Source: a virus. Taken from it: a DNA stretch of 37,933 nt. A program made the position numbers and the translations under genes. The notes beneath the pieces were generated by a model. The model saw only the letters and a list, made by a program, of their open reading frames with translations, did not search any database and was not told the origin of the DNA. Positions within the stretch are counted from its first letter, which is position 1. Each line of letters starts with the position of its first letter. Shown in pieces: positions 1 through 32,365 of this stretch. Location of the stretch: IMG/VR virus record IMGVR_UViG_3300009068_000006. One strand, written 5' to 3'.

Positions 1-1890
1 GGTGGTACAGGTGCTTCAACTGCAAGCACAGCATTTAACAATTTAAGTCCATTAACGACTGCTGGCGATACTTTATATGGCGGTACTAGCGGTGCTGGCA
101 CAAGATTATCCATTGGTACAGCAGGGCAAGTATTAACAGTCAATAGTGGTGCAACTGCTCCACAATGGTCTACACCAGCTACAGGCACAGTAACTAGCGT
201 TGGTGGCACAGGCACCGTTTCAGGTATATCGCTAAGTGGTACAGTTACTTCTAGTGGAAACCTTACTCTTGGTGGCACTTTAGATTTATCTAGCCCCCCA
301 ACAATCGGCAATACAGCACCAAATACAGGTAAGTTCACAACTCTAGAATCAACTGGCACAGGGTCATTTGGCACTACTTCAGCACAATATATTCAAGCAG
401 TAGGAAATGCTACATATCCGCAAATTAAAGCTGCTGGTTCAGGAACGGATATTCCATTAATTTTACAGCCTAAAGGCACAGGAGCATTACAAGCCCAATT
501 AACTGATTCTACTGCTACAGGTGGTAATGCTAGGGGTGCTAATGCTGTTGATTGGCAGACTAATAGAGGAAGTGCTGGACAAGTAGCAAGTGGTGCTTAT
601 GCTGTTGTTTCTGGTGGCTCAAGAAACCAATCAAGTGGTGATTACAGTGCAATAAACGGTGGCTACAACAACAGCAACCAAGCATATATGGGTGTTATTG
701 CTGGTGGTCAAAGCAACATTAACCAAGGCACATATTCTTTTGTTGGTGGTGGACAATTAAATAGTGCTCAAGGTCTTTACACAGTCATTGGTGGTGGGTG
801 GACAAATAGCGGAACAGTACAGGCGGCAGTAACAACTCAGTCTGCCACGATGAACGCTACAACAGCCGTTACATTGTCAGGAAGTAATGCAAGCATTAAA
901 GTTGGTCAATACATTTCGGGTACTTCTATTACTGGTCAAACTTATGTAGCCGCCATATCAGGAACAGCTTTAACCCTTTCCCAAGCCGCATCAGGTTCAT
1001 CTACATCAACTTTATCTTTCTTTACTCCTCATGGCGTAGTAGTAGGCGGTGGTAATAACACAGCAACTGGTAGTTATTCATTTATCGGTGGTGGTGGTGA
1101 TGCTGGTACTGCGGCTAATAGGAATGTGGCTAGTGGGGATTGGTCTGTAGTGGCTGGTGGAGTTAAGAATGTGGCAAGTGGTTTGTATTCAACTGTAGTT
1201 GGTGGGTATGGAAACACATCAAATAATACTGCCGCATTTGTTGGTGGTGGTGGGTTTGCTTTTGGTTCTGTTTTAGTCAATTCATCACAAGGGCAATCAT
1301 CAGGAGTAGTTTCTGGAATTAGTAATAACGCATCAGGTAATGCCGCATTTATTGGGGCAGGATACGGAAATTTATCTAATTCTCAATATTCTGCAATTAT
1401 GGGTGGCAGTTTTGGCACATCTAGAATTATTTCAGGAAACCATGTATTTTCAGCTTGTGTAAACCCTGTAGCACAATCAAGCGGAATTAATCAAGCCGCT
1501 TTATTAATACTTGCTAGACAAACAACTGATGCAACGGCAACTGTTTTATGTTCTGATAATAGTGCCGCAAGCGGAACAAACCAAGTAATACTACCTAACA
1601 ACTCTGCTTACTTCTTTACTGGAGAAGTGGTATCAGGCGTAACTGGCGGTGGAGATACTAAAGGCTGGACTATCGAAGGTGTAATCAAGCGAGGTGCTGG
1701 AGTAGGAACTACAGCCTTGGTCGGTACTCCTACAGTTACTTCCATGTACGCTGATTTAGGTGCGGCAACATGGACTATTGCAGTTACAGCAGATACAACC
1801 AATGGTGGTTTAAAAATTACCTTTACAGGGCAAGCAAGCACGACTATTCGTACAGTTTGCCAAATCCGTACAACAGAAATGACTTACTAA
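1..1890 (+). CDS. Tail fibre / receptor-binding protein, C-terminal 629 codons (the 5' part is 37631..37933; the gene spans the circular junction)
   Basis: Frame 1 is open from base 1 to the TAA at 1888-1890. Bases 1-123 equal 37811-37933 and are in frame with the ATG at 37631, giving a 689-aa product on the closed circle. The protein is G/S/T/N/A-rich with a ~14-aa periodic GG-x-x-N-x-A-x-G-x-x-S motif, e.g. SFVGGGQLNSAQGLYTVIGGG and VVAGGVKNVASGLYSTVVGG, typical of beta-helical fibre or adhesin heads. Confidence 0.75.
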   Translation, partial: GGTGASTASTAFNNLSPLTTAGDTLYGGTSGAGTRLSIGTAGQVLTVNSGATAPQWSTPATGTVTSVGGTGTVSGISLSGTVTSSGNLTLGGTLDLSSPPTIGNTAPNTGKFTTLESTGTGSFGTTSAQYIQAVGNATYPQIKAAGSGTDIPLILQPKGTGALQAQLTDSTATGGNARGANAVDWQTNRGSAGQVASGAYAVVSGGSRNQSSGDYSAINGGYNNSNQAYMGVIAGGQSNINQGTYSFVGGGQLNSAQGLYTVIGGGWTNSGTVQAAVTTQSATMNATTAVTLSGSNASIKVGQYISGTSITGQTYVAAISGTALTLSQAASGSSTSTLSFFTPHGVVVGGGNNTATGSYSFIGGGGDAGTAANRNVASGDWSVVAGGVKNVASGLYSTVVGGYGNTSNNTAAFVGGGGFAFGSVLVNSSQGQSSGVVSGISNNASGNAAFIGAGYGNLSNSQYSAIMGGSFGTSRIISGNHVFSACVNPVAQSSGINQAALLILARQTTDATATVLCSDNSAASGTNQVILPNNSAYFFTGEVVSGVTGGGDTKGWTIEGVIKRGAGVGTTALVGTPTVTSMYADLGAATWTIAVTADTTNGGLKITFTGQASTTIRTVCQIRTTEMTY

Positions 1891-1899
1891 GGAGCAATC

Positions 1900-2169
1900 A
1901 TGGCATTAAAACTTAACCTAGCATCAACTCAATTCGGTGTACCAGCCCCACAAGCCTATGCACGAATTACCAACTTCTTTGGTACAAAAGACCAAATCCA
2001 AGTGCAAGTGGCTATTTACTATAACGAAGAAGCAAGGCATGGCAACATGGCTACAGTTAAAGAAAATGCCCATTACATTGCGATTGAGGACTTAGAAGGC
2101 GATTTAATTCCTGCAATCTATGGAGTATTAAAGACCTTTACTGATTACGAAGGCGCAGTAGACGCATAA
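1900..2169 (+). CDS. Hypothetical structural-module protein (89 aa)
   Basis: ORF with an AAGGAG RBS (ctaaggagcaatcATG), 9 nt after the fibre stop. No motif recognised. Confidence 0.6.
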   Translation: MALKLNLASTQFGVPAPQAYARITNFFGTKDQIQVQVAIYYNEEARHGNMATVKENAHYIAIEDLEGDLIPAIYGVLKTFTDYEGAVDA

Positions 2170-2170
2170 C

Positions 2171-2287
2171 ATGGGTAATTTTTTTAATGGATTTTTCTTT
2201 GCAGGTGGTTTTTTTGGTAGTATTATTACTGCGGCGACACAACTTTATGTAAAACTCCGGTCATTTACGGAACGAGGGAGATATTAA
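2171..2287 (+). CDS. Small hydrophobic peptide (38 aa, MGNFFNGFFFAGGFFGSIITAATQLYVKLRSFTERGRY)
   Basis: Hand-translated and below the ORF-track cutoff. It starts 1 nt after the upstream stop, and its TAA overlaps the next ATG (TAATG at 2285-2289), which suggests translational coupling. It has one predicted TM-like Phe/Gly-rich segment. Confidence 0.35.
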   Translation: MGNFFNGFFFAGGFFGSIITAATQLYVKLRSFTERGRY

Positions 2288-2592
2288 TGTCTATGAATTT
2301 AAAAGCGATAACCGTATGTATTGGTTATCAACAGATTACAAGCCTAAGTTCGGCTCAGAGCCTTACAGTGCCTGCCACTGACTTAACTGGGCTTAATCAA
2401 AAGCCGACTTTTGCCTTAATTACCCCTGAAACTCAAGCTGTTCGGTGGCGTGATGATGGCGTAGCCCCGACCGCTTCGGTTGGTATGCCTTTGGCGGCTG
2501 GCGTCACTTTACAGTACGACGGCAATTTAAAAAACATTCAATTTATTGAGCAAACTGGCAGTGCCAAGCTCAATATCTCTTATTACGCGTAA
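2287..2592 (+). CDS. Hypothetical structural-module protein (101 aa)
   Basis: ORF preceded by a GAGGGAG RBS. No motif recognised. Confidence 0.6.
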   Translation: MSMNLKAITVCIGYQQITSLSSAQSLTVPATDLTGLNQKPTFALITPETQAVRWRDDGVAPTASVGMPLAAGVTLQYDGNLKNIQFIEQTGSAKLNISYYA

Positions 2593-2601
2593 GGAATAGA
2601 C

Positions 2602-3099
2602 ATGGATCTCTCTAACGGCTTTAGCGGTATTGACTCTAGCAAGTTAATGGACTATTTCACCAAAGACTTTTTAAAAGATCTTGGCAAAATGGCTGTTTTA
2701 TGCGATGAATTGGCTAAACGTCAAGGCGCACTGTCCGCTGTTGAGGACGCCAATAAGCTACGTTCAGACGCTCAAACTTACGCTGATAGCGTAAAAGCAG
2801 AGGCCGACATCAATTTAGACCAGGCTAAACAAACTAATGCAGCCTCTAAAGAGCTAAAAAAAGCCTTAGATACGCGTGAAACAGACCTAAATACGCGTGA
2901 AGGTCAGTATGAAACAAATCTAGCCAATTTAACAAAAGCGGCAGAAAAGCACAAAAAGGCTGTAGTTGACAATGAAGCTTCTTTAGCTAAACTACAGTCT
3001 GATTTAGAGGCAAAACAAAGACAAATAGACGCAGACCGAAATGCCTTGGATGAGCGAATTAAAGCCTTCCAGGATAAAGTGGCGTCAATACAGGTTTAA
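2602..3099 (+). CDS. Coiled-coil protein (165 aa)
   Basis: AAGGA RBS. The sequence is highly charged with heptad-like K/E/A/L/Q content (…LQSDLEAKQRQIDADRNALDERIKAFQDKV…). Confidence 0.6.
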   Translation: MDLSNGFSGIDSSKLMDYFTKDFLKDLGKMAVLCDELAKRQGALSAVEDANKLRSDAQTYADSVKAEADINLDQAKQTNAASKELKKALDTRETDLNTREGQYETNLANLTKAAEKHKKAVVDNEASLAKLQSDLEAKQRQIDADRNALDERIKAFQDKVASIQV

Positions 3100-3153
3100 T
3101 TTTTTTAGATCGTACTGGTGCGATACACCAGGGTTTCTTAAGGAAACATCGAA

Positions 3154-3939
3154 ATGGACGAAAGTCAAGAAGTAGTCTTAGCGGACTCAACTGCCGCGCC
3201 AGAACAGGTAGCAACGGCTGCACCTGTAACTGAAGAAGTAGCGCCGGAAGCAGTAGAGCCAACAGAAGCACCCAAAACCTTCTCCCAAGAAGAATTGGAC
3301 GCCGCTATTGGTAAACGACTTGCTAGAGAACAACGTAAGTGGGAAAGAGAACAGGCAGCTAGAGCCGCTGAAAAGCAGCTTAAAACTCCAGTAGAAATCC
3401 CGCCGATTGAGCAGTTTAATTCACCTGACGAGTATGCCGAGGTATTGGCAGAGCGTAAGGCAGAAGAATTGCTTGCTAGGCGTGAACAAGCTAGGATGCA
3501 GTCTGAGATCATTGAGTCCTATCACGACAAAGAAGAAGATGCTCGGAATAAGTACGATGACTTTGAACAAGTTGCGTATAACCCCAAGCTCCCAATCACT
3601 GACGCGATGGCTCAAACGATTCAATCTTCCGATGTTGGCCCCGATATGGCTTATTACCTAGGGTCTAATCCGAAAGAAGCTGATCGTATTTCTCGTTTAT
3701 CGCCGCTTCAGCAGGCCAAAGAATTAGGGAAAATTGAGGCTAAATTAGCTGATAATCCCGTAGTAAAAAAGACTTCGAGCGCTCCAGCACCAATTGCTCC
3801 GATTACGGCAAGATCCTCTGGATCTTCAGCAACAGACACAACGGATCCGCGTGCCATTAAAAGCATGACGACTTCAGAGTGGATTGAAGCTGACCGCCAA
3901 CGTCAGATCAAGAAGTGGGAAGCGCAGAGAAACCGCTAA
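3154..3939 (+). CDS. Putative scaffolding protein (261 aa)
   Basis: Lies immediately upstream of the coat gene and has an AAGGAAA RBS. It is acidic and Ala/Glu/Lys-rich with predicted helical character, and no enzymatic motif. The assignment rests on position and composition only. Confidence 0.55.
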   Translation: MDESQEVVLADSTAAPEQVATAAPVTEEVAPEAVEPTEAPKTFSQEELDAAIGKRLAREQRKWEREQAARAAEKQLKTPVEIPPIEQFNSPDEYAEVLAERKAEELLARREQARMQSEIIESYHDKEEDARNKYDDFEQVAYNPKLPITDAMAQTIQSSDVGPDMAYYLGSNPKEADRISRLSPLQQAKELGKIEAKLADNPVVKKTSSAPAPIAPITARSSGSSATDTTDPRAIKSMTTSEWIEADRQRQIKKWEAQRNR

Positions 3940-3963
3940 CTATTTTTTAATTAGGACTTTATT

Positions 3964-5166
3964 ATGTCAAATTCGATCTTAACCATCGACATGATTACAA
4001 GAAAAGCTCTTGAAATCCTTGAGAACAACCTTGTAATCACACGTAACGTAAACCGCCAATATGATGACTCTTTCGCTGTTGAAGGTGCCAAAATTGGTTC
4101 AACCCTTCGTATCCGCTTACCAGACCGCGCTTTGGTAACTGACGGTGCCGCCTTGCAAGTTCAAGACGACAACGAACAGTACACAACTTTGTCTGTTGCT
4201 AGCCAAAAACACATTGGTGTTAACTTCACCTCTGCTGAATTGACTATGCAGTTAGATGACTTTGCAGAGCGTGTTTTAAAACCACGTATTTCACAGTTGG
4301 CTTCTTCTATCGATGCAGATGTAGCAAACAGCTACAAAGCAATCTATAACTCAGTTGGCACACCTGGCACAACGCCTTCTACTTCTTTGGTGCTGTTACA
4401 AGCTCAACAGAAGCTGAACGAAAACGCTGCTGTTATGTCCCCACGTTACGCTACTGTTAACCCAGCAGCCAACGCAGGCTTGGTTGAAGGCATGAAAGGT
4501 CTGTTTAATCCTACAGACACAATCAGCCGTCAATTTAAGAACGGCATGATGGGTATGGGTGTACTAGGCTTTGATGAAGTTAACATGAGCCAATCTATCA
4601 AGCAACATACAACTGGTGCTTGGGGTACATCTATTACTGTAACTTCAACAGTTGCTACTGAAGGCCAAGCTACTTTAGGTATTAGCTTTACAGGCTCAAG
4701 CAAGACTTGGAACGTAGGTGATGTATTTACAATTGCTAGCGTATACGCTGTTAACCCACAAACCCGTGAGTCAACAGGTAGCTTGCAACAGTTCGTTGTA
4801 ACTGCTGCTGCAACTGGTTCTTCTACAGCTACATTGTCTATTAGCCCAGCGATTTATACGTCTGCTAACGCATTGGCAACTGTGGATTCATTCCCAGTAG
4901 CTGCTGCTGTAGTAACTATGTTGGGTTCTGCTTCTAGCCAGTACGCTCAAAACTTGGTTTACCACAAAGATGCGATCACTTTTGCGACCGCTGACTTGTT
5001 GTTGCCACAAGGTGTTGACATGGCTTCCCGCCAAGTTCATAACGGTATCTCTATGCGTGTTGTACGTCAGTATGATATCAATAATGACCGTTTACCTTGC
5101 CGTATTGACGTTCTATATGGCTTTAGCACAATCCGTCCACAGATGGCCTGCCGTATTTTTGGCTAA
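3964..5166 (+). CDS. Major capsid (coat) protein, P22-coat-like family
   Basis: 400 aa. The N-terminal signature ITRKALEILENNLVITRNVNRQYDDSFAVEGAKIGSTLRIRLPDR matches the pattern I know from P22-type coat proteins. It follows the scaffold gene and is followed by a strong terminator. Confidence 0.85.
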   Translation: MSNSILTIDMITRKALEILENNLVITRNVNRQYDDSFAVEGAKIGSTLRIRLPDRALVTDGAALQVQDDNEQYTTLSVASQKHIGVNFTSAELTMQLDDFAERVLKPRISQLASSIDADVANSYKAIYNSVGTPGTTPSTSLVLLQAQQKLNENAAVMSPRYATVNPAANAGLVEGMKGLFNPTDTISRQFKNGMMGMGVLGFDEVNMSQSIKQHTTGAWGTSITVTSTVATEGQATLGISFTGSSKTWNVGDVFTIASVYAVNPQTRESTGSLQQFVVTAAATGSSTATLSISPAIYTSANALATVDSFPVAAAVVTMLGSASSQYAQNLVYHKDAITFATADLLLPQGVDMASRQVHNGISMRVVRQYDINNDRLPCRIDVLYGFSTIRPQMACRIFG

Positions 5167-8768: not shown

Positions 8769-9701
8769 ATGACAACATTTTTGACCCCATCCCCCAAACA
8801 ACAGTTTTTTACTGCTGCTGGCGTACCATTAGTAGGGGGTAAAGTTTATACATACGCTGCGGGTACCTCTACTCCACTAGCTACCTATCAAGATTCTACT
8901 GGCACCGTTAGTAATACTAACCCTATTATTTTGGATTCTAGGGGCGAATGTAATCTTTGGCTTTTACCTGCTAATGCGTATAAATTTATACTAAAAGACA
9001 GCACAGACGCCTTAATTTGGACTGTAGACAATATCAATTTAGGTATTAACTTTAGTAATGTCATCATTACTGGCGGTAGCATTAACGGCGTTACCATTGG
9101 CAATATTGACCCAGGGACTGCCGTATTTACCGATCTAACCGCAACTGGCACTGTCACTTTTAATGGTGTCACGCAGATGCAGATTCCGGCTGGGCCTACG
9201 GCTAATCGCTCTACAACCCCTGTAGATGGCATGATCCGCTACAACAGCACAACTGACCAGTATGAGGGTAACACCACTGTAGCTGGTCAAACTATCTCTA
9301 CGCTTCAATTATCTGGCACGGTGACCGCCATTTTGACTACAGCTAGCACTCATGGCTTATCTACGGGCGATTACATTACCGTTACAGGCGCTACGCCTGC
9401 TGCGTACAACGGTTCGTACAATATTACTTATATTAGTAGCACTTCGTTTAGTTACACTATGGCGTCAAACCCAGGCGGTAATGCTACGGTTGTAGGTACT
9501 TATGAAGTTCATTTATGGTCAAATATTGGTGGCGGGGCTACAGGTGGCGGTACTAATCAAATTTTTTTTGAAAATGAACAGACCGTAACCGCTAACTATA
9601 CAATCACTACAGGTCGTAATGCAATGAGCGCTGGGCCAATTACAATCGATACGGGCGTATCTGTATCTATCCCAACTGGTTCATATTGGGTAATCGTCTA
9701 A
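8769..9701 (+). CDS. Tail fibre / tailspike protein (310 aa)
   Basis: The N-terminus KQQFFTAAGVPLVGGKVYTYAAGTSTPLATYQDSTGTVSNTNPIILDSRGECNLWL is the widespread phage fibre/spike N-terminal anchor pattern (Q-F-x-D/A-x-G-x-PL-x-GGK-x-YTY-x-AGT). GAGG RBS. Confidence 0.7.
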   Translation: MTTFLTPSPKQQFFTAAGVPLVGGKVYTYAAGTSTPLATYQDSTGTVSNTNPIILDSRGECNLWLLPANAYKFILKDSTDALIWTVDNINLGINFSNVIITGGSINGVTIGNIDPGTAVFTDLTATGTVTFNGVTQMQIPAGPTANRSTTPVDGMIRYNSTTDQYEGNTTVAGQTISTLQLSGTVTAILTTASTHGLSTGDYITVTGATPAAYNGSYNITYISSTSFSYTMASNPGGNATVVGTYEVHLWSNIGGGATGGGTNQIFFENEQTVTANYTITTGRNAMSAGPITIDTGVSVSIPTGSYWVIV

Positions 9702-17967: not shown

Positions 17968-18234
17968 ATGAATATTCAAGACATTTTAAAGGCGGTATTG
18001 CCAATTGTTGTAGCGTGTTTGGCTTGGTTATTAGGTCAAGTATCAGACTTTTCTACACGCCTTACCAAGATTGAAGGGCAGATGCCAGCTTTGATTACTA
18101 AGGAAAATGTACCAACTGACTCTCCTCTTTCTGCTGAAGCAAGACATAGGCTTAAAGAAGAAGTTTACAAAGACATCCATCAACTTCAAGTAAAAGTTCA
18201 ATTGCTTGAAGAACGAGAAAAAGGGAGAAAATAA
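17968..18234 (+). CDS. Membrane-anchored coiled-coil protein (88 aa), lysis-region
   Basis: I preferred the ATG at 17968 (MNIQDILKAVLPIVVACLAWLLGQV…) over the GTG at 17905. N-terminal TM segment plus a helical, charged C-terminus. Possible i-spanin-like topology. Confidence 0.5.
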   Translation: MNIQDILKAVLPIVVACLAWLLGQVSDFSTRLTKIEGQMPALITKENVPTDSPLSAEARHRLKEEVYKDIHQLQVKVQLLEEREKGRK

Positions 18235-18635
18235 TGTTTGGAGTAGATGACATCATTAGTGTAGGGATGAAAATCCTAGACAAAGTTATACCCGATCCAG
18301 CTGCAAAAGCTGAAGCACAAGCCAAGTTGTTAGAAATACAACAACAAGGCAGGATGGCTGAGTTGCAAGCAGACAATGTTGAAGCGCAAGAACTGTCAAA
18401 ACGACAAGCAGCAGATATGGGTAGTGATAGTTGGTTATCCAAAAATATACGCCCCATGACTCTCATAGCAATCTTAGCAGGGTACTTTATCTTTGCTGGT
18501 TTGTCTGCGGCTAAAATTGATGTCAATTCTGAATATGTACAGCTGCTTGGGCAGTGGGGTATGTTGATTATGTCTTTCTATTTCGGGGGTCGCACTTTGG
18601 AGAAGATAATGGATATGAAAGCTAAAAAAGAATGA
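18234..18635 (+). CDS. Holin, GTA-type 3-TM holin family
   Basis: The N-terminus ILDKVIPDPAAKAEAQAKLLEIQQQG, then SWLSKNIRPM, then hydrophobic segments match the pattern I know for the 'holin of 3 TMs, gene-transfer release' family. It lies directly upstream of, and overlaps, the endolysin gene. Confidence 0.7.
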   Translation: MFGVDDIISVGMKILDKVIPDPAAKAEAQAKLLEIQQQGRMAELQADNVEAQELSKRQAADMGSDSWLSKNIRPMTLIAILAGYFIFAGLSAAKIDVNSEYVQLLGQWGMLIMSFYFGGRTLEKIMDMKAKKE

Positions 18636-19219
18636 CCTATGACCAGTTAGATGCTTTAGGGATTGACCATAAATGGTTAGCTCCTTTGGAAGAAACCTTT
18701 GCTAAATACGATATTTCTACGCCTGTGCGCCAGGCAGCATTTATTGGTCAATGCGCCCATGAGTCGGGCAACTTTAAGACTCTGCAAGAAAACCTCAATT
18801 ACAGCGCTGAAGGGCTAATGAAAACATGGCCTAGCCGGTTTCCTACTAAAGAAGTGGCTGATCAATACGCCCGTCAGCCCGCTAAAATTGCTGGTAAGGT
18901 ATACAACGGGCGTTTAGGTAATACTAGCGAAGAAGAAGCTGCTAAATACTTAGGCAGGGGTTTGATTCAACTGACTGGCAAGGAAAACTATGCAAACTGC
19001 GGATCGGGTATTAATGTTGATCTTCTTGCTGACCCTACTCTATTGTTGGATCCACGATACGCTACGCTATCCGCAGGGTGGTTTTGGAACAAGAAAGGTT
19101 TAAACGCCCTAGCAGACGCGGGTGATGCAGTCACCATCACCAAACGTATCAATGGCGGCGCGCTGGGTCTAGATGACCGCCTAGCAAAGACAGATAAAGC
19201 GCTTAGGGTTCTTGCGTAA
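18632..19219 (+). CDS. Endolysin, glycoside hydrolase family 19 (chitinase-like lysozyme)
   Basis: Motifs AAFIGQCAHESGNF, LQENLNYS, GRGLIQLTGKENY and RINGGALGLDDR are GH19 phage endolysin landmarks that include both catalytic Glu positions. Confidence 0.85.
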   Translation: MTYDQLDALGIDHKWLAPLEETFAKYDISTPVRQAAFIGQCAHESGNFKTLQENLNYSAEGLMKTWPSRFPTKEVADQYARQPAKIAGKVYNGRLGNTSEEEAAKYLGRGLIQLTGKENYANCGSGINVDLLADPTLLLDPRYATLSAGWFWNKKGLNALADAGDAVTITKRINGGALGLDDRLAKTDKALRVLA

Positions 19220-26158: not shown

Positions 26159-28462
26159 ATGAACTTTGTTGAATATATCACCAATTTAGCGCCAGAAGGC
26201 GAAACTGCTTTAATTGTTAGACAAAAACCACAGTTAGATGGCAACGGGATGATGCAGACCCATGCGGACGGCGCCATTAAATGCACTTGGCCTGCGTTCT
26301 TGCCAACAGCTAAGATCAAGACTGATTGGGCAATCTACGGCAATACAGGCTCGTTTATCCTAGATCGCTTTGCCGATGGTAAGGTGTCAGCCTCAGCCGC
26401 CAACTGTGAATACGTCCTTGTGATGATGCTAGATGACATCGGCACCAAGTCCAAAGAGCCACCCCTTGCGCCTACATGGATTATGGAAACGTCCGAAGGC
26501 TCGTACCAGTGGGGCTACGCGTTCAAAGAGCAACCGACCAAGGGTGACTTCACCGCAGCAATTAAAGCCATAGCTAAGGCAGGCTACACCGATCCAGGCG
26601 CTACTAACGCAGTGCGGAACTTCCGCTTGCCAGGTTCTGTAAACCTAAAGCCAGGGCGCGGTAACTTCGCTTCTGTCTTAGTAGAGTTTCACCCTGAGCG
26701 TGAATACAACTTAGAGGATATATGTGTCGCTCTAGCTGTCACACCTGATCCTGCTGACACGGCAACGAACGTAGCCATTCGCTTGGCTGACACTGGCAAG
26801 GACTCGGTGGTCACTTGGTTGAACGAGCAGGGCATGATTATGTCGGCAGCTAATGGCGAAGGCTGGATGGGTGTGGTTTGCCCTAACAACGCTGAGCATA
26901 CCGATGGCAACATCGAAGGGCGTTACAAACCCTTAGATCGTAGTTACTGCTGTTTGCATGGTCACTGCGTCGAGTTTAGTTCGCAGATGTTTTTAGATTG
27001 GGTGGCTGATAATGGTGGCCCCGAGGTGGATCATGGTTTGCGTGATGAGTTACTAGCAGAAAAGATGAATATGGCATTGTCCAAGTTGACCCCAAACGAA
27101 GTCTATCGTGACACCGCAGCAGAACTTATTGCCGAGGTTGAGCGTAAAGAGCTGGGCAGGATTGAAAAAGCCAACTGGTATGAGCGTTTTGCTTACATCC
27201 AAGATGATGAGTCTTACTTTGATATGCAAGACCGGCGTGAAGTCAGTCGCCAGACGTTTAACGCGTTGTTCCGTCACGTGCCTTGCAAGTCTATTCATAC
27301 TGGACGTAAAGTCGAGGCATCAATCTGCTTTGACGAGAACCGTCAAGCCAACGGTGCTAAAGCGCTAGTTGGTGTGACCTACGCTGCGGGCGAAGGTGTG
27401 ATCGTTACCCGTGATGGCGATTTGTTTGGCAATCGTTGGCGTGATGCGCGTCCAGAAATAGATTCGCAAAAAGCGTCTAATGACATCTCCTTATGGATGG
27501 ATCACTGCCACGCTCTTGTTCCTGAGCAAGCCGAGTTAGACCATATCTTTGATGTAATGGCGTTTAAGGTGCAATATCCAGAGATCAAGGTAAACCACGC
27601 CATCCTTCACGCTGGTGATGAGGGGTCAGGCAAAGACACCTTTTGGGCGCCATTCATCTGGGCAGTCTGCGGAAACCATTTAAAAAATCGCGGGATTATG
27701 GATAACAACTCAGTCAATAGCCAGTGGGGTTATCAGCTAGAGTCAGAGATCTTGATCATTAACGAATTAAAAGAGCCTGACGCTGCAACGCGTCGTCAGC
27801 TGGCTAACCAACTCAAACCAATCATAGCTGCGCCACCTGAGATGCTGCCAATTAATCGCAAGGGCTTGCACCCGTACATGATGGCAAACCGCTTGTTTGT
27901 CCTGGCGTTCTCTAATGACCCTGTGCCTATCAGTCTGGCTAGTCAAGACAGGCGTTGGTTTTGTGTATGGAGTACGGCAGAGCGCATGGACTCCAACAAA
28001 GCCAAGCAGATGTGGGACTGGTATCGCTCTGGTGGTTTTTATGCAATCGCTCACTTTTTGCGTTGCCGTGATGTTTCTAAATTTAACCCGTCTGCACCGC
28101 CGATGTGGACAGAGTTCAAGGCTAACTTAGTCGAGCATGGCATGAGCATGGCAGAGAGCTATTTAGTTGAGATGTTACGCAACAGGGTAGGGGAGTTTAA
28201 TAAAGGCGTGATCGGTTCACCGTTCCATGCGTTATGTGATCGTCTGGCTGGCTCTGCTCCATCTGGCGTAAAAGTGCCGCAGGCTGCACTACTACACGCG
28301 TTAAAAGAAGCAGGATGGGTTGATTGCGGAAGGCTTAAATCTAGAGAGTTTGGCACGAAGAAGCATATTTTTGCGTGTCCAGAGATGGCTGACTATTCCA
28401 AGTCGGACTTGCGCAGGATGGTAGAAGAAAATCCACAGCCTAAGATGGTGCTGGTTAAATGA
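26159..28462 (+). CDS. Primase-helicase fusion (RepB/AEP-like primase + PriCT-2-type Zn motif + P-loop NTPase)
   Basis: N-terminal VLVMMLDDIG, ETSEGSYQWGY and VRNFRLPGSVNLKPG, as in RepB-type primases. The centre has CPNNAEHTDGN…YCCLHGHC. The C-terminus has a Walker A ILHAGDEGSGKDTF and a Walker-B-like LIINEL. Confidence 0.8.
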   Translation: MNFVEYITNLAPEGETALIVRQKPQLDGNGMMQTHADGAIKCTWPAFLPTAKIKTDWAIYGNTGSFILDRFADGKVSASAANCEYVLVMMLDDIGTKSKEPPLAPTWIMETSEGSYQWGYAFKEQPTKGDFTAAIKAIAKAGYTDPGATNAVRNFRLPGSVNLKPGRGNFASVLVEFHPEREYNLEDICVALAVTPDPADTATNVAIRLADTGKDSVVTWLNEQGMIMSAANGEGWMGVVCPNNAEHTDGNIEGRYKPLDRSYCCLHGHCVEFSSQMFLDWVADNGGPEVDHGLRDELLAEKMNMALSKLTPNEVYRDTAAELIAEVERKELGRIEKANWYERFAYIQDDESYFDMQDRREVSRQTFNALFRHVPCKSIHTGRKVEASICFDENRQANGAKALVGVTYAAGEGVIVTRDGDLFGNRWRDARPEIDSQKASNDISLWMDHCHALVPEQAELDHIFDVMAFKVQYPEIKVNHAILHAGDEGSGKDTFWAPFIWAVCGNHLKNRGIMDNNSVNSQWGYQLESEILIINELKEPDAATRRQLANQLKPIIAAPPEMLPINRKGLHPYMMANRLFVLAFSNDPVPISLASQDRRWFCVWSTAERMDSNKAKQMWDWYRSGGFYAIAHFLRCRDVSKFNPSAPPMWTEFKANLVEHGMSMAESYLVEMLRNRVGEFNKGVIGSPFHALCDRLAGSAPSGVKVPQAALLHALKEAGWVDCGRLKSREFGTKKHIFACPEMADYSKSDLRRMVEENPQPKMVLVK

Positions 28463-28465
28463 AAT

Positions 28466-28537
28466 TTAATCAAAAATTGCGTCTTTTAAAACTTAATCGA
28501 AAAAAGCGTCTATCAAATCTAATCGAAAATTGCGTCT
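28466..28537 (+). repeat. Three iteron-like 19-bp direct repeats
   Basis: TTAATCAAAAATTGCGTCT (28466-28484), TTAATCGAAAAAAGCGTCT (28493-28511) and CTAATCGAAAATTGCGTCT (28519-28537). Spacing is 27 and 26 bp, starting 4 nt after the primase-helicase stop. Confidence 0.7.
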
Positions 28538-28666: not shown

Positions 28667-28910
28667 GAGCTGGAGCTGGAGCTGGAGCTGGAGCTGGAGC
28701 TGGAGCTGGTCTGGTGTCTGGTCTGGTGTCTGGTCTGGTGTCTGGTCTGGTGTCTAGTCTGGTGTCTAGTCTGGTGTCTGGTCTGGTGTCTGGTCTGGTG
28801 TCTGGTCTGGTGTCTGGTCTGGTGTCTGGTCTGGTCTGGTCTGGTCTGGTCTGGTCTGGTCTGGTCTGGTGTCTGGTCTGGTCTGGTGTCTGGTCTGGTC
28901 TGGTGTCTGG
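28667..28910 (+). repeat. Compound microsatellite array: (GAGCTG)7, then TCTGG-based 12-mers and pentamers
   Basis: GAGCTG x7 at 28667-28708. The TCTGGTCTGGTG-type 12-mer is then repeated about 10 times to ~28829, with two G>A variants at 28756 and 28768. TCTGG x8 follows at 28830-28869, then mixed units run to 28910. The plus strand has only two A residues across 28709-28910. Confidence 0.95.
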
Positions 28911-28980
28911 CAGACCTTTAATCTAGCACTGGCAAGGTTTTACAGCGCTGGTAATACTCACCTATCAATTAAGCAAAATA

Positions 28981-29009
28981 AAACCCCTAGAGTGCCAGTC
29001 TAGGGGTTT
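28981..29009. terminator. Bidirectional rho-independent terminator
   Basis: An 11-bp stem AAACCCCTAGA (28981-28991) pairs with TCTAGGGGTTT (28999-29009) around a 7-nt loop. An A-run lies upstream and a T-run downstream. It sits 78 nt beyond the end of the reverse-strand cassette. Confidence 0.7.
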
Positions 29010-29086
29010 TAAGTTTAGGAGTTTACTGGTTTATAGTTTCCACATCAAAATTAGCAGTTCAATAAATAAAACTATTAGTAGATATA

Positions 29087-29182
29087 TCATGCCATAAAAC
29101 CATAGGCAAAAATACTGCCTAAAAGTATCCCCAGTAAGGCAGTGCCTACCCAGTCCCATATTGTCAGTTTTGTATTTTCCAT
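29087..29182 (-). CDS. Small membrane peptide (31 aa, MENTKLTIWDWVGTALLGILLGSIFAYGFMA)
   Basis: An internal ATG at 29182 of track ORF 29087..29293 has an AAGGA RBS 6 nt upstream. It starts 10 nt after the GATase-like stop. Single TM segment. Confidence 0.4.
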   Translation of the reverse strand: MENTKLTIWDWVGTALLGILLGSIFAYGFMA

Positions 29183-29192
29183 GTTGTGTCCT

Positions 29193-30173
29193 TTATTCCA
29201 TGTAAGCAGGAAAAGAGTTATAGGGTTTAAGACCAAAGTCTGCACGGGCAGTCTTATGGTCTGTGATGCCAGCAATAAAACTCTGCTCATCAATCTCTCC
29301 CTGCATGAGCATATCTGCCAAGTCTAGAAAAGCATTAACCCCAAAGACATCCACAAAACTATCCAGAGAGCTATAGGAGAGCTTTCCTGCCTTTTCGTAC
29401 CCCATATAGAGTAAGTCCTCAATCGTGGCCTCAAGGTCGTAATAATCAGGGTAGTAATACTCTCTAGACCCGTACACACTGCCAGACCCCATGTAGTCAT
29501 ACTTGATTGGCAGTCTAGTGTCTGGCACTTCTTTAGATTGCTTGAGAATGAGTGCTTGTGCCTTTTTACTTTTTTTGTATCCAGTCTTACTGGCAGTATC
29601 ACTGGCAGACCAAGCATAAGTGTTTGAGAGCCAGAGACCTGCCCAATACACTCCAGAGCTTTGATTGACTACTGCCTGTCTGCCCTGCTCATCCATTAAC
29701 ACAAACTTATTTGAGGCGCCTATATGACTGCCAATAATGGCAGAAAATTCACGAGTAAAAGCATAATCAGGGTTATGAGCCAGCATAGGTCTCAAGTAGT
29801 CCTTGATATAGTGCCAAGTGTCACTTTTACTGGTGTCTGCTTGATTGCCAGTGGCTAAGATGCCATTGTGCATGAGCCAGAGTGAAGTCCCATGTTCTTG
29901 CTGGTTGAGGACTTCATAGGGATGACAGTTAGTCAGATCAGTATCCCCATGAGTTCTCATCCTGAGATGGAAAGCGCAATTTTTGCCAGCAATATGATTG
30001 CTATAAAAGTTAATAAAATCTTCTGCTGATACTGGCAGAATTTTCTCAACTACTAACGCTCCATTTTTTGCATACATCACGCCTACACCATCAGAGTTGT
30101 AATCGTAAAAATCAGAGAGCCAGACCCTAGAGAGAGCTGGAGAGTTTTGGTTTTGGGTAATTAGTAAACACAT
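29193..30173 (-). CDS. Ntn-hydrolase / class-II glutamine amidotransferase-like protein (326 aa) with a unique C-terminal extension
   Basis: Starts Met-Cys (MCLLI…), so Cys2 is a candidate N-terminal nucleophile. AFHLRMRTHGDTDLTNCHPY and LWLMHNGIL match the class-II GATase (YafJ/GATase_4-type) pattern H-x-R-x-A-T-x-G…N-x-HPF…HNG. The last ~130 aa have no recognised motif. AAGGA RBS. Confidence 0.7.
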   Translation of the reverse strand: MCLLITQNQNSPALSRVWLSDFYDYNSDGVGVMYAKNGALVVEKILPVSAEDFINFYSNHIAGKNCAFHLRMRTHGDTDLTNCHPYEVLNQQEHGTSLWLMHNGILATGNQADTSKSDTWHYIKDYLRPMLAHNPDYAFTREFSAIIGSHIGASNKFVLMDEQGRQAVVNQSSGVYWAGLWLSNTYAWSASDTASKTGYKKSKKAQALILKQSKEVPDTRLPIKYDYMGSGSVYGSREYYYPDYYDLEATIEDLLYMGYEKAGKLSYSSLDSFVDVFGVNAFLDLADMLMQGEIDEQSFIAGITDHKTARADFGLKPYNSFPAYME

Positions 30174-30203
30174 AATAATTTTGTCCTTTTCGTGAGGTAT
30201 TTA

Positions 30204-31610
30204 TTAAACTTCTGAAACTTCTGGTAATGCTGGTAAAGCAGGAGCAGGGACTTTACGCAAGTTGTCTGCCAGCTCATATCCCTTTTCTTTCAGATACGCT
30301 CTCAAAAATCGAGTGTCTTTTCGGTTTTGTGGAGCAGAGATAAACTCCAAAAACTTAGCACTGGTCAGATCGTTAGTGCTTGCTTGTGCAGTGAAGTGCC
30401 AGCAAGCAAAGGCAAACTCCAGACATGAAATCATGGTCTCATATTTAAGAGTGCCCTTAAATAACCTAAACTCCACTGTCTTATCATTCCTGAAGTTGAG
30501 TGCTTCATACCTATCAGAGTTCAGTCTCCTAAGCTGGTCTGCCTTGTCCTTGCTAGAGTGGAATGAGTCCTTGAGCCAGTGCTTGTCCTCCTTTTTATTC
30601 TGAAGTTTGGAGTATCCACTGGCATCCCGTCTGGCAATATCTTTGACTAATTTCAAGTTAGCAGGGTCATTGATAAATAGCACAAGTTTTGCACCATGTA
30701 GAGTGGTCATGCTGGACTTACATACATGGACATGAAGTCCACAAGTGCTAGTGTCGTGAGACTTAAGACCCTTTACCCTTTGCTTGAAATACTGGAGCTG
30801 GTTTTTATGCACATCTAGACCCGTGTAAGCAGTAACCATCTCAAACCCATTATCCAGAGACCCGTCCTCCTCCATCAGGCAGTAGTTGTGCCTTATCCCG
30901 TCCTCATCTCGATAGTCTGAGATATTGTCCAAAATAAGTCCAGCTCTACTGTCCTTGTCATAATCTTCATGCACTTCTACCTCCAGCTCCAGACCTAATA
31001 ACACTCTAGGAGAGCGCATATCGTAACCGGACGGAATATGCCCTAAGTTGTTTTTGCTGGAGTGATAACTGCCTATATGCTCATATTCTGGTTCGTTCTC
31101 CTCCTCCTGCTCATCTTCATAGTCTGAATTGCTTATGTAAGTATCTCTAGAGTGAGAGTAAGAGTAATTCTCCTCAAGGCAATCTTGGCAAACTTGATAG
31201 TCTCCATCATAGGTGTGAGTGCAATCATCTATATGGAAATAATCATTGCACTCCTCACAACAAAAAAAACTTTCCCTAAAATGAGTATGTAATAAGTCTG
31301 GTATATCTTTTCGATAACTTACCCTAGTCCCGTACTGGTTGATTGCATCCAGAGCGCTCCTCCAGTCATCATTCTGAATTGCTAGTCCCAGCTCCAGACC
31401 TACAATTTTATACATCTTGATGCGCTCCAGAAGTCCAAATGGAGAGTGTCCAGATAATCTGCCTTTCTGCATTGACTGCCAGTCTTTCCCAAGATTTTCC
31501 GAGATGATACCTTTAGCACGACTGAATAAGACCTCACGTTGTCTTTCAGGAGTTGAGCCAGTTATCTGCTCCCGTGCCTCTCTCCATTTTTGCATTAAGT
31601 TTTGAGCCAT
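30204..31610 (-). CDS. Amidoligase (glutamine-synthetase/GCS2-like 'Amidoligase_2' type) with an N-terminal Cys/His Zn-ribbon-like module (468 aa)
   Basis: The C-terminal half has LLGLELEVEV, CGLHVHV and TVEFRLFKGTL, the landmarks of the phage/prophage amidoligase family. Residues 117-144 (CCEECNDYFHIDDCTHTYDGDYQVCQDC) form a CC-x2-C…C-x-H…C-x2-C cluster. An acidic run DYEDEQEEENEPEYE follows. AAGGA RBS. Confidence 0.7.
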   Translation of the reverse strand: MAQNLMQKWREAREQITGSTPERQREVLFSRAKGIISENLGKDWQSMQKGRLSGHSPFGLLERIKMYKIVGLELGLAIQNDDWRSALDAINQYGTRVSYRKDIPDLLHTHFRESFFCCEECNDYFHIDDCTHTYDGDYQVCQDCLEENYSYSHSRDTYISNSDYEDEQEEENEPEYEHIGSYHSSKNNLGHIPSGYDMRSPRVLLGLELEVEVHEDYDKDSRAGLILDNISDYRDEDGIRHNYCLMEEDGSLDNGFEMVTAYTGLDVHKNQLQYFKQRVKGLKSHDTSTCGLHVHVCKSSMTTLHGAKLVLFINDPANLKLVKDIARRDASGYSKLQNKKEDKHWLKDSFHSSKDKADQLRRLNSDRYEALNFRNDKTVEFRLFKGTLKYETMISCLEFAFACWHFTAQASTNDLTSAKFLEFISAPQNRKDTRFLRAYLKEKGYELADNLRKVPAPALPALPEVSEV

Positions 31611-31637: not shown

Positions 31638-31654
31638 ATGAGAATAATTCTCAT
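31638..31654. promoter_or_regulatory. 17-bp perfect palindrome, candidate operator upstream of the amidoligase cassette
   Basis: ATGAGAAT-a-ATTCTCAT, with 8-bp arms. It lies 28-44 nt upstream of the ATG at 31610 on the minus strand. Confidence 0.4.
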
Positions 31655-31730
31655 GCACTACTGCACTTCTACTGCTCTCCTGATTTTAGACCACAAGTTT
31701 AAGAGACTGCAAGCAATTCTTTTACATTAG

Positions 31731-31863
31731 TTGTGGTGTCTGGTGTCTTGGTGATGTTGTGGACAAGTTGTGGCAGTTGTGGACTGGTTGTGGATAGTAT
31801 TGTGGACAATGGTAAAAGGCAGTTAGAGCCATAGCTGGTCTGCTTGTGGGTATTGTGGGTAAT
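31731..31863 (+). repeat. Array of 8 direct TTGTGG(A/G/C) motifs (DnaA-box-like, reverse orientation)
   Basis: TTGTGG starts at 31731, 31757, 31768, 31777, 31788, 31800, 31844 and 31853. The central five are 9-12 bp apart. Four 9-mers are 8/9 matches to the reverse complement of TTATCCACA: TGTGGACAA (31758 and 31801), TGTGGATAG (31789) and TGTGGGTAA (31854). Confidence 0.85.
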
Positions 31864-31951
31864 GATAAAAGGATATATAGCTAAAGATTGTATTTTGTAT
31901 ATTGTGTCTGCACGAATGTTATAAGTTAGCGATTTAAAATGACTGTCCAAA

Positions 31952-32108
31952 TTGCCCACATGACCCACACTTTGCCAGAACGTCTCCAGACCTTTTCCAA
32001 AATTCTGCCAGTTGTGGGCATTATGGGTAATACTTTAGATAATGACCCACATTACCCACAAAATGATAATTATGGGCTCTTGGTTGTGGGTAGCCCACAT
32101 GACCCACA
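31952..32108 (+). repeat. Opposed block of CCCACA / TTGTGGG motifs (DnaA-box-like)
   Basis: CCCACA occurs at 31955, 31964, 32046, 32055, 32094 and 32103, forming three tandem 9-bp pairs. TTGTGGG occurs at 32012 and 32084. TTACCCACA (32052-32060) is an 8/9 match to TTATCCACA. TGTGGGtagCCCACA (32085-32099) is an inverted pair. Confidence 0.85.
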
Positions 32109-32365
32109 ACATAATAAGATAATGGCATTATGTTGATTATTAGATAATCAATAGATAATCAGCACATAATCAATAGCTCATGGTATGAGCTAGTAGGGTA
32201 AACCCCTAGCTTTAAAAACTGCCTAATTTTTAGGCATACCCCCCTAGGGCCAGGGCTAACAGCCCATCGGTCACGGTAAGTTCACGAACAATTTTTTTTC
32301 TAAATAGAAATCCGTCCCAAGCTATTAAGTTTTATTTTTTATTAAAAAGTGATAACATCACGCGT

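Follow-up and report, generated by a model that had tools for sequence, protein, structure and literature searches.

A divergent amidoligase and class-II amidohydrolase pair with membrane mini-peptides in a P22-like podovirus genome

The cassette and its two enzymes

In the viral record IMGVR_UViG_3300009068_000006, a cassette of two large genes and two very small ones lies on the minus strand between the primase gene and the putative small terminase gene, and it is divergent from the packaging operon. The whole stretch of DNA that was analysed, 37,933 nucleotides and referred to as the window, is a 37.9-kb P22-like podovirus genome as judged from its PHROG and Pfam matches. The cassette is a divergent copy of an already-described two-enzyme phage module, an amidoligase followed by a class-II glutamine amidotransferase (GATase), and it carries accessory domains of its own. 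A first-pass annotation made from the sequence had described three open reading frames (ORFs) here, and these ORFs as well as the motifs LGLELEVEV, CGLHVHV, VEFRLFKGTL, Met-Cys, HLRMRTHG, NCHPY and MHNG in their translations were all recovered. Since each of the two large proteins has more than 1000 homologues (best E-values 1e-288 for the 468-aa protein and 1e-196 for the 326-aa protein), the two large ORFs are real genes. The features of the cassette, in the direction of its transcription, are these:

31683..31712, minus strand: sigma-70-like promoter candidate read from the sequence (-35 TTGCAG, 18-nt spacer, -10 TAAAAT)
31638..31654, no strand: palindrome read from the sequence, in the 5' leader, 28-44 nt upstream of the amidoligase start codon
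30204..31610, minus strand: predicted amidoligase, 468 aa, with an AAGGA Shine-Dalgarno sequence 8 nt upstream
29193..30173, minus strand: predicted stand-alone class-II GATase/N-terminal-nucleophile (Ntn) amidohydrolase, 326 aa
29087..29182, minus strand: P1, a 31-aa single-pass membrane peptide, MENTKLTIWDWVGTALLGILLGSIFAYGFMA, with an AAGGA Shine-Dalgarno sequence after the GATase stop
29031..29090, minus strand: P2, a 19-aa hydrophobic peptide, MIYLLIVLFIELLILMWKL, whose start overlaps the P1 stop (ATGA)
28979..29011, no strand: bidirectional intrinsic-terminator hairpin of 13 bp that ends the cassette

When the 468-aa protein was scored directly against Pfam, Amidoligase_2 (PF12224) gave 16.9 bits, which is below the gathering cutoff of 22, and a direct sequence search of the PDB gave no match. 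Its PHROG matches were phrog_16683 at 7.8e-30 and the 'amidoligase' family phrog_2443 at 5e-9. Homologues at 33-55% identity passed the Pfam thresholds, and PF12224 is carried by homologues at 45-70% identity (transitive homology). The loci whose gene neighbourhoods were analysed, numbered with an L, were 80 from IMG/VR and 8 from exact-protein look-ups together with the window; the amidoligases of L079, L083, L086, L058 and L059 scored 23.8-38.1 bits on Amidoligase_2, and long amidoligase representatives scored 23.7-40 bits. The AlphaFold model, with a predicted local distance difference test score (pLDDT) of 80, had as its top solved neighbours in Foldseek YbdK/GCS2 (E=1e-4, probability 1.0), PafA, GmaS (γ-glutamylmethylamide synthetase), glutamine synthetase (GS) and Dop. 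From these fold searches and from the transitive profile evidence, the 468-aa protein is predicted to be a member of the GS-fold Amidoligase_2 superfamily, and the family call of the first-pass annotation is upheld by the agreement of PHROG, threshold-passing homologues and AlphaFold/Foldseek even though the direct Pfam score is sub-threshold. The solved neighbours named above all activate the γ-carboxylate of glutamate, and the known GS-fold ligases except GS itself form γ-glutamyl amides.

The ligase begins with a fast-evolving helical N-terminus (aa 1-111) that is followed by a C4 zinc ribbon (aa ~113-160), an acidic linker, the GS-fold catalytic domain (aa ~175-445) and a disordered tail. 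E208/E210/E212, E247, D249, E257, H293, H295, R367, E369, E380 and R382 are invariant, and so are C118, C121, C141 and C144 in 34 sequences, which bears out the Zn-ribbon-like N-terminal module noticed earlier. Among distant amidoligase relatives (P0250-P0390), many are 550-900 aa long with the catalytic domain at the C-terminus and large N-terminal extensions; a Pfam scan of these long extensions gave no domain match except a weak one to DUF7685.

The direct Pfam score of the 326-aa partner on GATase_4 was likewise below threshold, 15.9 bits compared to a cutoff of 23, and its relative in L086 passes this threshold with 24.6 bits. Sequence searches of the PDB gave only marginal matches to PurF (E=0.02 when the single sequence was used, 0.38 for the profile), and an NCBIfam scan gave only sub-threshold matches to GlmS. 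When the protein was aligned to PurF with HMMER, the segments hlrmrtHG, nchP and lmhNG fell opposite hvryatAG, nvqP and lahNG. The AlphaFold model (pLDDT 83) had GlmS (2e-5), PurF, EgtC and 1te5 as solved neighbours in Foldseek, all at probability 1.0, and a YafJ-like protein was among the top ones. In 37 sequences C2, R71, T74-H75-G76, N103-G104 and S117-D118-T119 are invariant; the nucleophile C2 comes directly after the initiator Met, and a role for D118 is suggested by its position. The earlier assignment to the Ntn/class-II GATase family stands on the Foldseek folds, on the invariant C2 and glutamine-binding residues and on the relative that is over the Pfam threshold, and the protein is predicted to be a stand-alone Cys1 class-II GATase/Ntn amidohydrolase. 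A weak PADLOC match to CARF_HEPN (E=0.001) was taken as chance.

The Ntn domain of the partner (aa 1-~195) is followed by a basic helix and a disordered linker rich in Y, G and S (aa ~196-243), of which residues 221-242 have a pLDDT below 50, and then by a helical C-terminal domain of roughly 75 aa (aa ~244-318). No fused synthase (acceptor) domain of the kind found in PurF, GlmS, AsnB and GltS is present, and therefore the protein resembles the stand-alone EgtC/YafJ type. The C-terminus had no credible match in Pfam, in the PDB or by fold, one sub-threshold Pfam match being to Phage_TAC_18 (E=0.28). This region had been described as a unique C-terminal domain of about 130 aa; it is in fact family-wide, as the alignments of the more than 1000 homologues span 95-100% of the query.

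EgtC and Dug3, the stand-alone class-II Ntn proteins that have been characterised, are γ-glutamyl amide hydrolases. The class-II glutaminases known to us that donate ammonia are fused to their synthase, and we know of none that is a separate subunit. Because of these precedents and that of the GS-fold ligases, the reading that we favour, tentatively and with a probability of roughly 0.4, is that the two enzymes are a γ-glutamyl-type write-and-trim or write-and-erase pair that may be placed near the membrane by the peptides.

Pairing, distribution and membrane mini-peptides

A GATase-like gene was found immediately 3' of the amidoligase gene and on the same strand in all 74 loci with enough downstream sequence. 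In 72 pairs the gap between the two genes was measured and ranged from -32 to +79 nt; in the remaining two (L079 and L081) the GATase gene was recovered by a six-frame hmmsearch. The pairwise divergences of the two proteins correlate with r=0.92, a value that was reached in 0 of 999 permutations. Accessory regions diverge faster than the catalytic cores, the mean distances being 0.81 and 0.72 compared to 0.46 and 0.38. A partial mirror-tree of the ligase N-terminus against the GATase C-terminus gave r≈0.35, which is weak and confounded by saturation, and an interface between these two regions is not claimed on so weak a correlation.

Obligate adjacency and co-evolution are typical of two-subunit amidotransferases, and this brings in an explanation that we consider possible but rather unlikely. 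By analogy with MurT/GatD, the pair would be a heteromeric glutamine-dependent amidotransferase in which the Ntn subunit splits ammonia from free glutamine and the GS-fold subunit makes a carboxamide with it from an ATP-activated carboxylate; the candidate target would be the D-isoglutamate (D-iGlu) or meso-diaminopimelate (mDAP) carboxylate of membrane-located lipid II or peptidoglycan precursors, and the change to the wall would serve superinfection exclusion or lysis control. Two enzymes would be enough for this, the hydrolase-first order would avoid a futile cycle, ammonia is the ancestral GS-fold nucleophile and membrane mini-peptides would fit a lipid-linked substrate. Peptidoglycan modification has also been proposed in the earlier literature for the related cassettes of phiEco32, LUZ24 and RIO-1. 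However, the extra genes of those larger cassettes are absent here, as neither the window nor the set of conserved neighbours in the 80 loci was found to contain a RimK-like ATP-grasp enzyme, a GGCT or a second COOH-NH2 ligase, and the roughly 40-aa disordered tether in the Ntn protein fits a sealed channel poorly. Nor is a GS-fold enzyme known that accepts channelled ammonia, or a class-II GATase that acts as a separate ammonia-donating subunit. The γ-glutamyl pair remains the reading that we prefer.

When the neighbourhoods of the pair were compared, no third conserved protein family was found; after the two enzymes, the commonest neighbours belong to several families of terminases, portals and primases, none of which is present in more than 17 loci. 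It follows that phage backbones exchange the pair as one unit. It is often the first large gene of an operon that diverges from the genes of the small and large terminase subunits (TerS-TerL), and in other lineages it is co-oriented with replication genes, so the reverse orientation is not a property of the module and the insulated, reverse-oriented layout that had been singled out is lineage-specific. The closest cultured relative, DSL-LC05 (OR003940.1; L089), has a portal that is 71% identical and no cassette; its version of the divergent slot (690-4078) holds about ten small genes of other kinds, among them a 'repressor protein C' homologue and an endonuclease. This shows that the cassette is accessory and that the early slot in which it sits is variable.

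These neighbourhoods also bear on whether DNA could be the target. That a side chain is added to, or amidated on, a base in a DNA or nucleotide hypermodification is, in our judgement, very improbable. The cassette does adjoin replication and packaging genes, and Lee et al. 2021 reported that amidoligase and amidotransferase genes are associated with 5-HMUDK/aGPT-Pplase clusters in viral contigs, which would favour such a role. On the other hand, a dUMP hydroxymethylase, a 5-hmdU kinase (5-HMUDK), aGPT-Pplase, DpdA, a radical-SAM enzyme and a pyridoxal-phosphate (PLP) enzyme were not found in the window, and none of these families is among the conserved neighbours in the 80 related loci. The first-pass annotation had likewise recognised no companion genes for DNA hypermodification. 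Since DNA-modification partners are lacking both in the window and in related loci, DNA is an unlikely target; the association with membrane peptides is also unfitting, and the closest relative does without the cassette. The recurrence of genes for hydrophobic mini-peptides, described below, strengthens the earlier leaning toward a protein, metabolite or envelope target over DNA.

The module is nearly absent from cellular genomes and essentially restricted to viruses. In a motif scan of 185,579 species, each represented by one genome, only 3 contigs of metagenome-assembled genomes were found, compared to 449 confirmed IMG/VR contigs on the viral side. With a cutoff of E≤1e-3 a full hidden Markov model (HMM) search gave 9225 representatives, and with E≤1e-30 it gave 559 (clusters at 50% identity). 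This near-absence from cellular genomes is unlike typical auxiliary metabolic genes (AMGs), which are copied from hosts, and it counts against a soluble auxiliary metabolic module that would reroute host nitrogen, glutamine, glutathione or polyamine pools in favour of phage replication, for instance by forming or breaking down γ-glutamyl compounds, without any specific role in conflict or at the envelope. The literature usually labels such genes 'AMGs', and the structural neighbours YbdK, GmaS, GS and EgtC are small-molecule enzymes, which is consistent with a metabolic role; but the fast-evolving accessory domains and the variable early slot are more typical of host-interaction genes, and the recurrent membrane peptides would be left unexplained. 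We regard this metabolic explanation as distinctly improbable.

About half of the lineages have hydrophobic mini-ORFs of 19-31 aa after the GATase gene. To our knowledge, the coupling of the amidoligase/GATase pair to membrane mini-peptides has previously gone unremarked. L001, L009 and L010 have homologues of P1, and at least 15 further loci have P1-type peptides that are more distant; peptides of this type have a polar N-terminus that ends in Asp or Glu and is followed by a transmembrane (TM) segment, and many of them overlap the GATase stop by 3-10 nt. The counterpart of P2 in L001 is MTYLLILLFIEVLILVWEL, and P2-like peptides, which end in ...LFDL, are present in L009-L012, L015, L016 and L070. 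Two further hydrophobic types of 25-26 aa also occur after the GATase gene. In a hydrophobicity-based scan with controls, 20 of 69 loci had a hydrophobic mini-ORF that started no more than 20 nt to either side of the GATase stop, compared to 9 of 671 in the control set, which consisted of other genes with a length of 100 aa or more (Fisher p=8e-16). When the loci were de-duplicated at 80% identity, 10 of 34 had such a mini-ORF within ±20 nt and 17 of 34 within 450 nt. The TM peptide is therefore not confined to close relatives. Thus, the 31-aa TM peptide of the first-pass annotation is real and part of a recurrent association, but the second peptide of 19 aa (P2) had gone unreported; and of the trio of genes described there, the enzyme pair is constant while the mini-peptide is frequent but not obligatory.

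Other recurrent mini-genes were seen just 3' of the GATase gene in L024, L052, L054 and L062, and after the pair also in L001, L010 and L012. One of them encodes a 29-30-aa zinc-ribbon peptide, CPICSR..KRWG..C..CR, and another a protein of 58-66 aa that begins M.LFKVLLTTTQWH. The slot downstream of the pair thus collects several kinds of small genes.

The translational coupling of the peptides to the enzyme genes raises the question whether P1 and P2 are themselves the substrates. In a RiPP-like (ribosomally synthesised and post-translationally modified peptide) or pupylation-like system, an isopeptide or amide would be formed on a peptide carboxylate, for example that of the acidic residue (Asp or Glu) which P1 keeps at its membrane interface, and the Ntn enzyme would process the product. 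Start-stop overlaps of 3-19 nt with the enzyme genes in many loci, the P1/P2 ATGA overlap in the window, the acidic residue that is conserved just before the TM segment across P1-type peptides, and the presence of PafA and Dop among the structural neighbours would all agree with this. The enzyme cores, however, are highly conserved although there are at least three unrelated peptide types and none in half of the lineages; the peptides lie downstream of the enzymes with no evident leader/core organisation; and judging from the conserved Arg and Asp in its active site, the Ntn enzyme binds a free α-amino acid (glutamyl) moiety and not an internal peptide residue. It is hardly likely, therefore, that the peptides are the substrates; under the preferred γ-glutamyl reading they would help to place the enzymes.

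Regulatory elements and genomic surroundings

The palindrome ATGAGAATAATTCTCAT is perfect, with arms ATGAGAAT-A-ATTCTCAT. In L001, L003 and L010 the arms are kept with a variable centre base (ATGAGAAT-N-ATTCTCAT), in L009 the stem is shorter, and in L011 and L070 the palindrome is absent. When folded as RNA it forms a 7-bp hairpin, and the whole leader folds no better than shuffled sequences (z=-0.2). The position of the promoter is conserved in relatives, L009 and L010 having TTTACA-17-TACAAT, and an invariant AGAGCA is found just downstream of the promoter candidate; a stricter consensus promoter scan did not call the candidate at 31683..31712. Because the palindrome is in the 5' leader downstream of the conserved -35/-10, it may equally be an RNA hairpin or an operator. 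The operator-like palindrome proposed earlier is thus real and conserved in close relatives, but its reading as an operator is only one of two. The terminator hairpin of 28979-29011 is also present downstream of the peptides in L001.

Both ends of the cassette are flanked by repeats. The stretch from the cassette promoter to the small terminase gene contains fourteen copies of TTGTGG(A/G) / (C/T)CCACA, in both orientations, within 425 bp (31758-32108), which is ~29x the density in the window, and some of them resemble DnaA boxes, e.g. TTGTGGATA. Relatives have GTCCACA/ATCCACA repeats at the same place, of which one gene caller made a spurious 136-aa ORF in L001. These repeats may mark an origin or a pac site, or they may be regulatory iterons. 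Upstream of the small terminase gene an 11-nt repeat, TAGATAATCAA, is present 3.3 times (32141-32176). At the other end, between the primase terminator and the cassette terminator, there are microsatellites (28667-28910) consisting of (GAGCTG)x7 and then (CTGGTCTGGTGT)x17, alternatively (CTGGT)x35. L001 carries different repeats at the same place (9001-9108), (GCTCCA)x9 and a different 22-nt repeat x2.6, which makes this tract hypervariable between relatives. Right after the primase stop is a 27-nt direct repeat x2.9 (28462-28537), and L001 has a similar 26-nt repeat x2 in the corresponding position (9231-9281).

The other genes of the window, as assigned from PHROG and Pfam matches, are arranged as follows:

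1-19 kb: scaffold, major head, adaptor and tail genes (PHROG/Pfam)
18234-18635: holin of the gene-transfer-agent (GTA) type with 3 TM segments (Pfam 1e-9), overlapping the endolysin start
18632-19219: endolysin, phrog_181 (PHROG)
20.5-28.5 kb: helicase, exonuclease, family-A DNA polymerase and primase (PHROG/Pfam)
from 32366 onwards: putative TerS, TerL and portal (PHROG/Pfam; TerS by position only)

The lysis genes (holin and endolysin, 18234-19219) are far from the cassette, and since the phage has its holin and endolysin elsewhere, P1 and P2 are not a lysis cassette.

Proposed chemistry and comparison with known systems

Under the favoured reading, the module would be an early-expressed, horizontally mobile phage accessory whose obligate core is two enzymes with one kind of bond in common, a glutamine or γ-glutamyl-type amide. 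The ligase would use ATP to activate a carboxylate, by family precedent most likely the γ-carboxylate of glutamate, to an acyl-phosphate and couple it to an amine; specificity or docking would lie with the variable helical N-terminus and the C4 zinc ribbon of this enzyme. In the Ntn protein, removal of Met would expose Cys1, and a free glutamyl moiety would be bound by the conserved Arg, Asn-Gly and Asp; the enzyme would then split the γ-amide through a thioester and in this way trim, reverse or feed the ligase reaction. The coupled peptides of 19-31 aa would bring this chemistry to the cytoplasmic face of the inner membrane, where the target would be associated with the envelope or would be the peptides themselves. 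Such activity may serve remodelling of the host or its envelope, superinfection exclusion or counter-defence; both the position in an early slot and the restriction to viruses make host takeover or counter-defence a plausible role.

Several points weigh against this reading. The Foldseek TM-scores are low (0.3-0.4), although the probabilities are 1.0. The glutamine-binding residues do not separate a glutaminase from a γ-glutamyl-X hydrolase. A ligase and a hydrolase of the same bond would be futile unless a host step, timing or different substrates intervene. Finally, a hydrophobic peptide is lacking in roughly half of the lineages, among them that of the cultured OM43 phage MEP401, and hence membrane association is not obligatory.

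It is also conceivable, if improbable, that the enzymes and the coupled peptides together are a phage-only membrane-anchored machine for the early γ-glutamylation or amidation of an envelope component or of the peptides; lipid II or the peptidoglycan stem peptide, a phospholipid head-group or a membrane protein would be the candidate envelope targets. If this is true, superinfection exclusion or counter-defence would have a new enzymatic mechanism, one that is widespread in uncultured aquatic podoviruses.

By itself the cassette adds no new function. What it adds is that the subfamily is large and essentially viral and occupies early accessory slots of abundant aquatic podoviruses, and that a minimal two-gene core with frequent mini-peptide coupling narrows the search toward γ-glutamyl or amidation chemistry at the membrane. 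As natural controls exist, namely the cassette-less relative DSL-LC05 and the cultured OM43 phages with a distant version, the question of function that dates from 2009 is experimentally tractable.

The association of phage amidoligases (PF12224) with GAT-II proteins was reportedly recognised by comparative genomics by Iyer et al. in 2009. The conserved neighbourhood with a GAT-like thiol amidohydrolase is part of the Pfam family description of Amidoligase_2, and this adjacent amidohydrolase is what was found in 74 of 74 loci. The pairing has since been annotated repeatedly in phages, in the LUZ24, phiEco32 and RIO-1 cassettes, in OM43 phages and in Poseidoniales viruses. No functional study of the pair was found in the literature, and the papers that were found all treat its role as speculative, in keeping with the earlier description of a known association with no demonstrated substrate.

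The 'peptidoglycan modification cassette' of LUZ24 (gp18-gp19) and of phiEco32, PaP3, tf, RIO-1 and PSA-HP1 has the same order, an amidoligase and then a class-II GATase, in the early/replication region, and the proteins belong to the same superfamilies as the window pair, with DGSL..G.E, C..H.H, Y.ALN and IEFR aligning. These classical cassettes are only remotely related to it, there being no tblastn match at 1e-5 and the hhalign E-values being 0.04 and 0.007; a megablast of the cassette against phage records likewise gave no match. Cassettes of the LUZ24 type also encode a COOH-NH2 ligase, a RimK-like ATP-grasp enzyme and GGCT, with a GATase of 510 aa, whereas the window cassette has the two-enzyme core only, with its own zinc-ribbon N-terminal module, tethered helical C-terminal domain and membrane mini-peptides. 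Closer to the window pair, and the best-matching of 50,697 deposited phage records, are gp05-gp06 of the OM43 phages MEP401/MEP402 and the pair of Caudoviricetes sp. ctgrD200 (MW202733). These are adjacent two-gene pairs that head the replication operon, with 27-36% identity in the catalytic cores only; this group has a longer N-terminal region (amidoligase ORF of 1641 nt, about 546 aa), and MEP401 is without the hydrophobic peptide.

Outside phages three systems can be compared. The lipid II amidotransferase MurT/GatD also consists of an ATP-dependent carboxylate-activating subunit and a separate glutaminase that work on a membrane-bound precursor; its folds differ, being a Mur ligase and a class-I triad GATase, and it is likened by analogy with no sequence relationship expected. 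In pupylation, PafA and Dop are a GS-fold ligase and an amidase that act on the glutamyl γ-carboxylate or amide of a tag, and both are structural neighbours of the phage ligase, but the phage eraser or deamidase would have the Ntn and not the GS fold, and no Pup-like tag gene is conserved. In ergothioneine synthesis, the intervening EgtB, EgtD and EgtE are absent in the phage, the pairing as seen here is phage-specific, and sequence identity is 12-16%; EgtC and YbdK/GCS2, which is related to EgtA, are among the Foldseek matches. The likeness to EgtA/EgtC is thus a mechanistic analogy and not membership, and it lies in the use of the same two folds, a GS-fold γ-Glu-Cys ligase and a stand-alone class-II Ntn γ-glutamyl amidohydrolase, on one γ-glutamyl amide.

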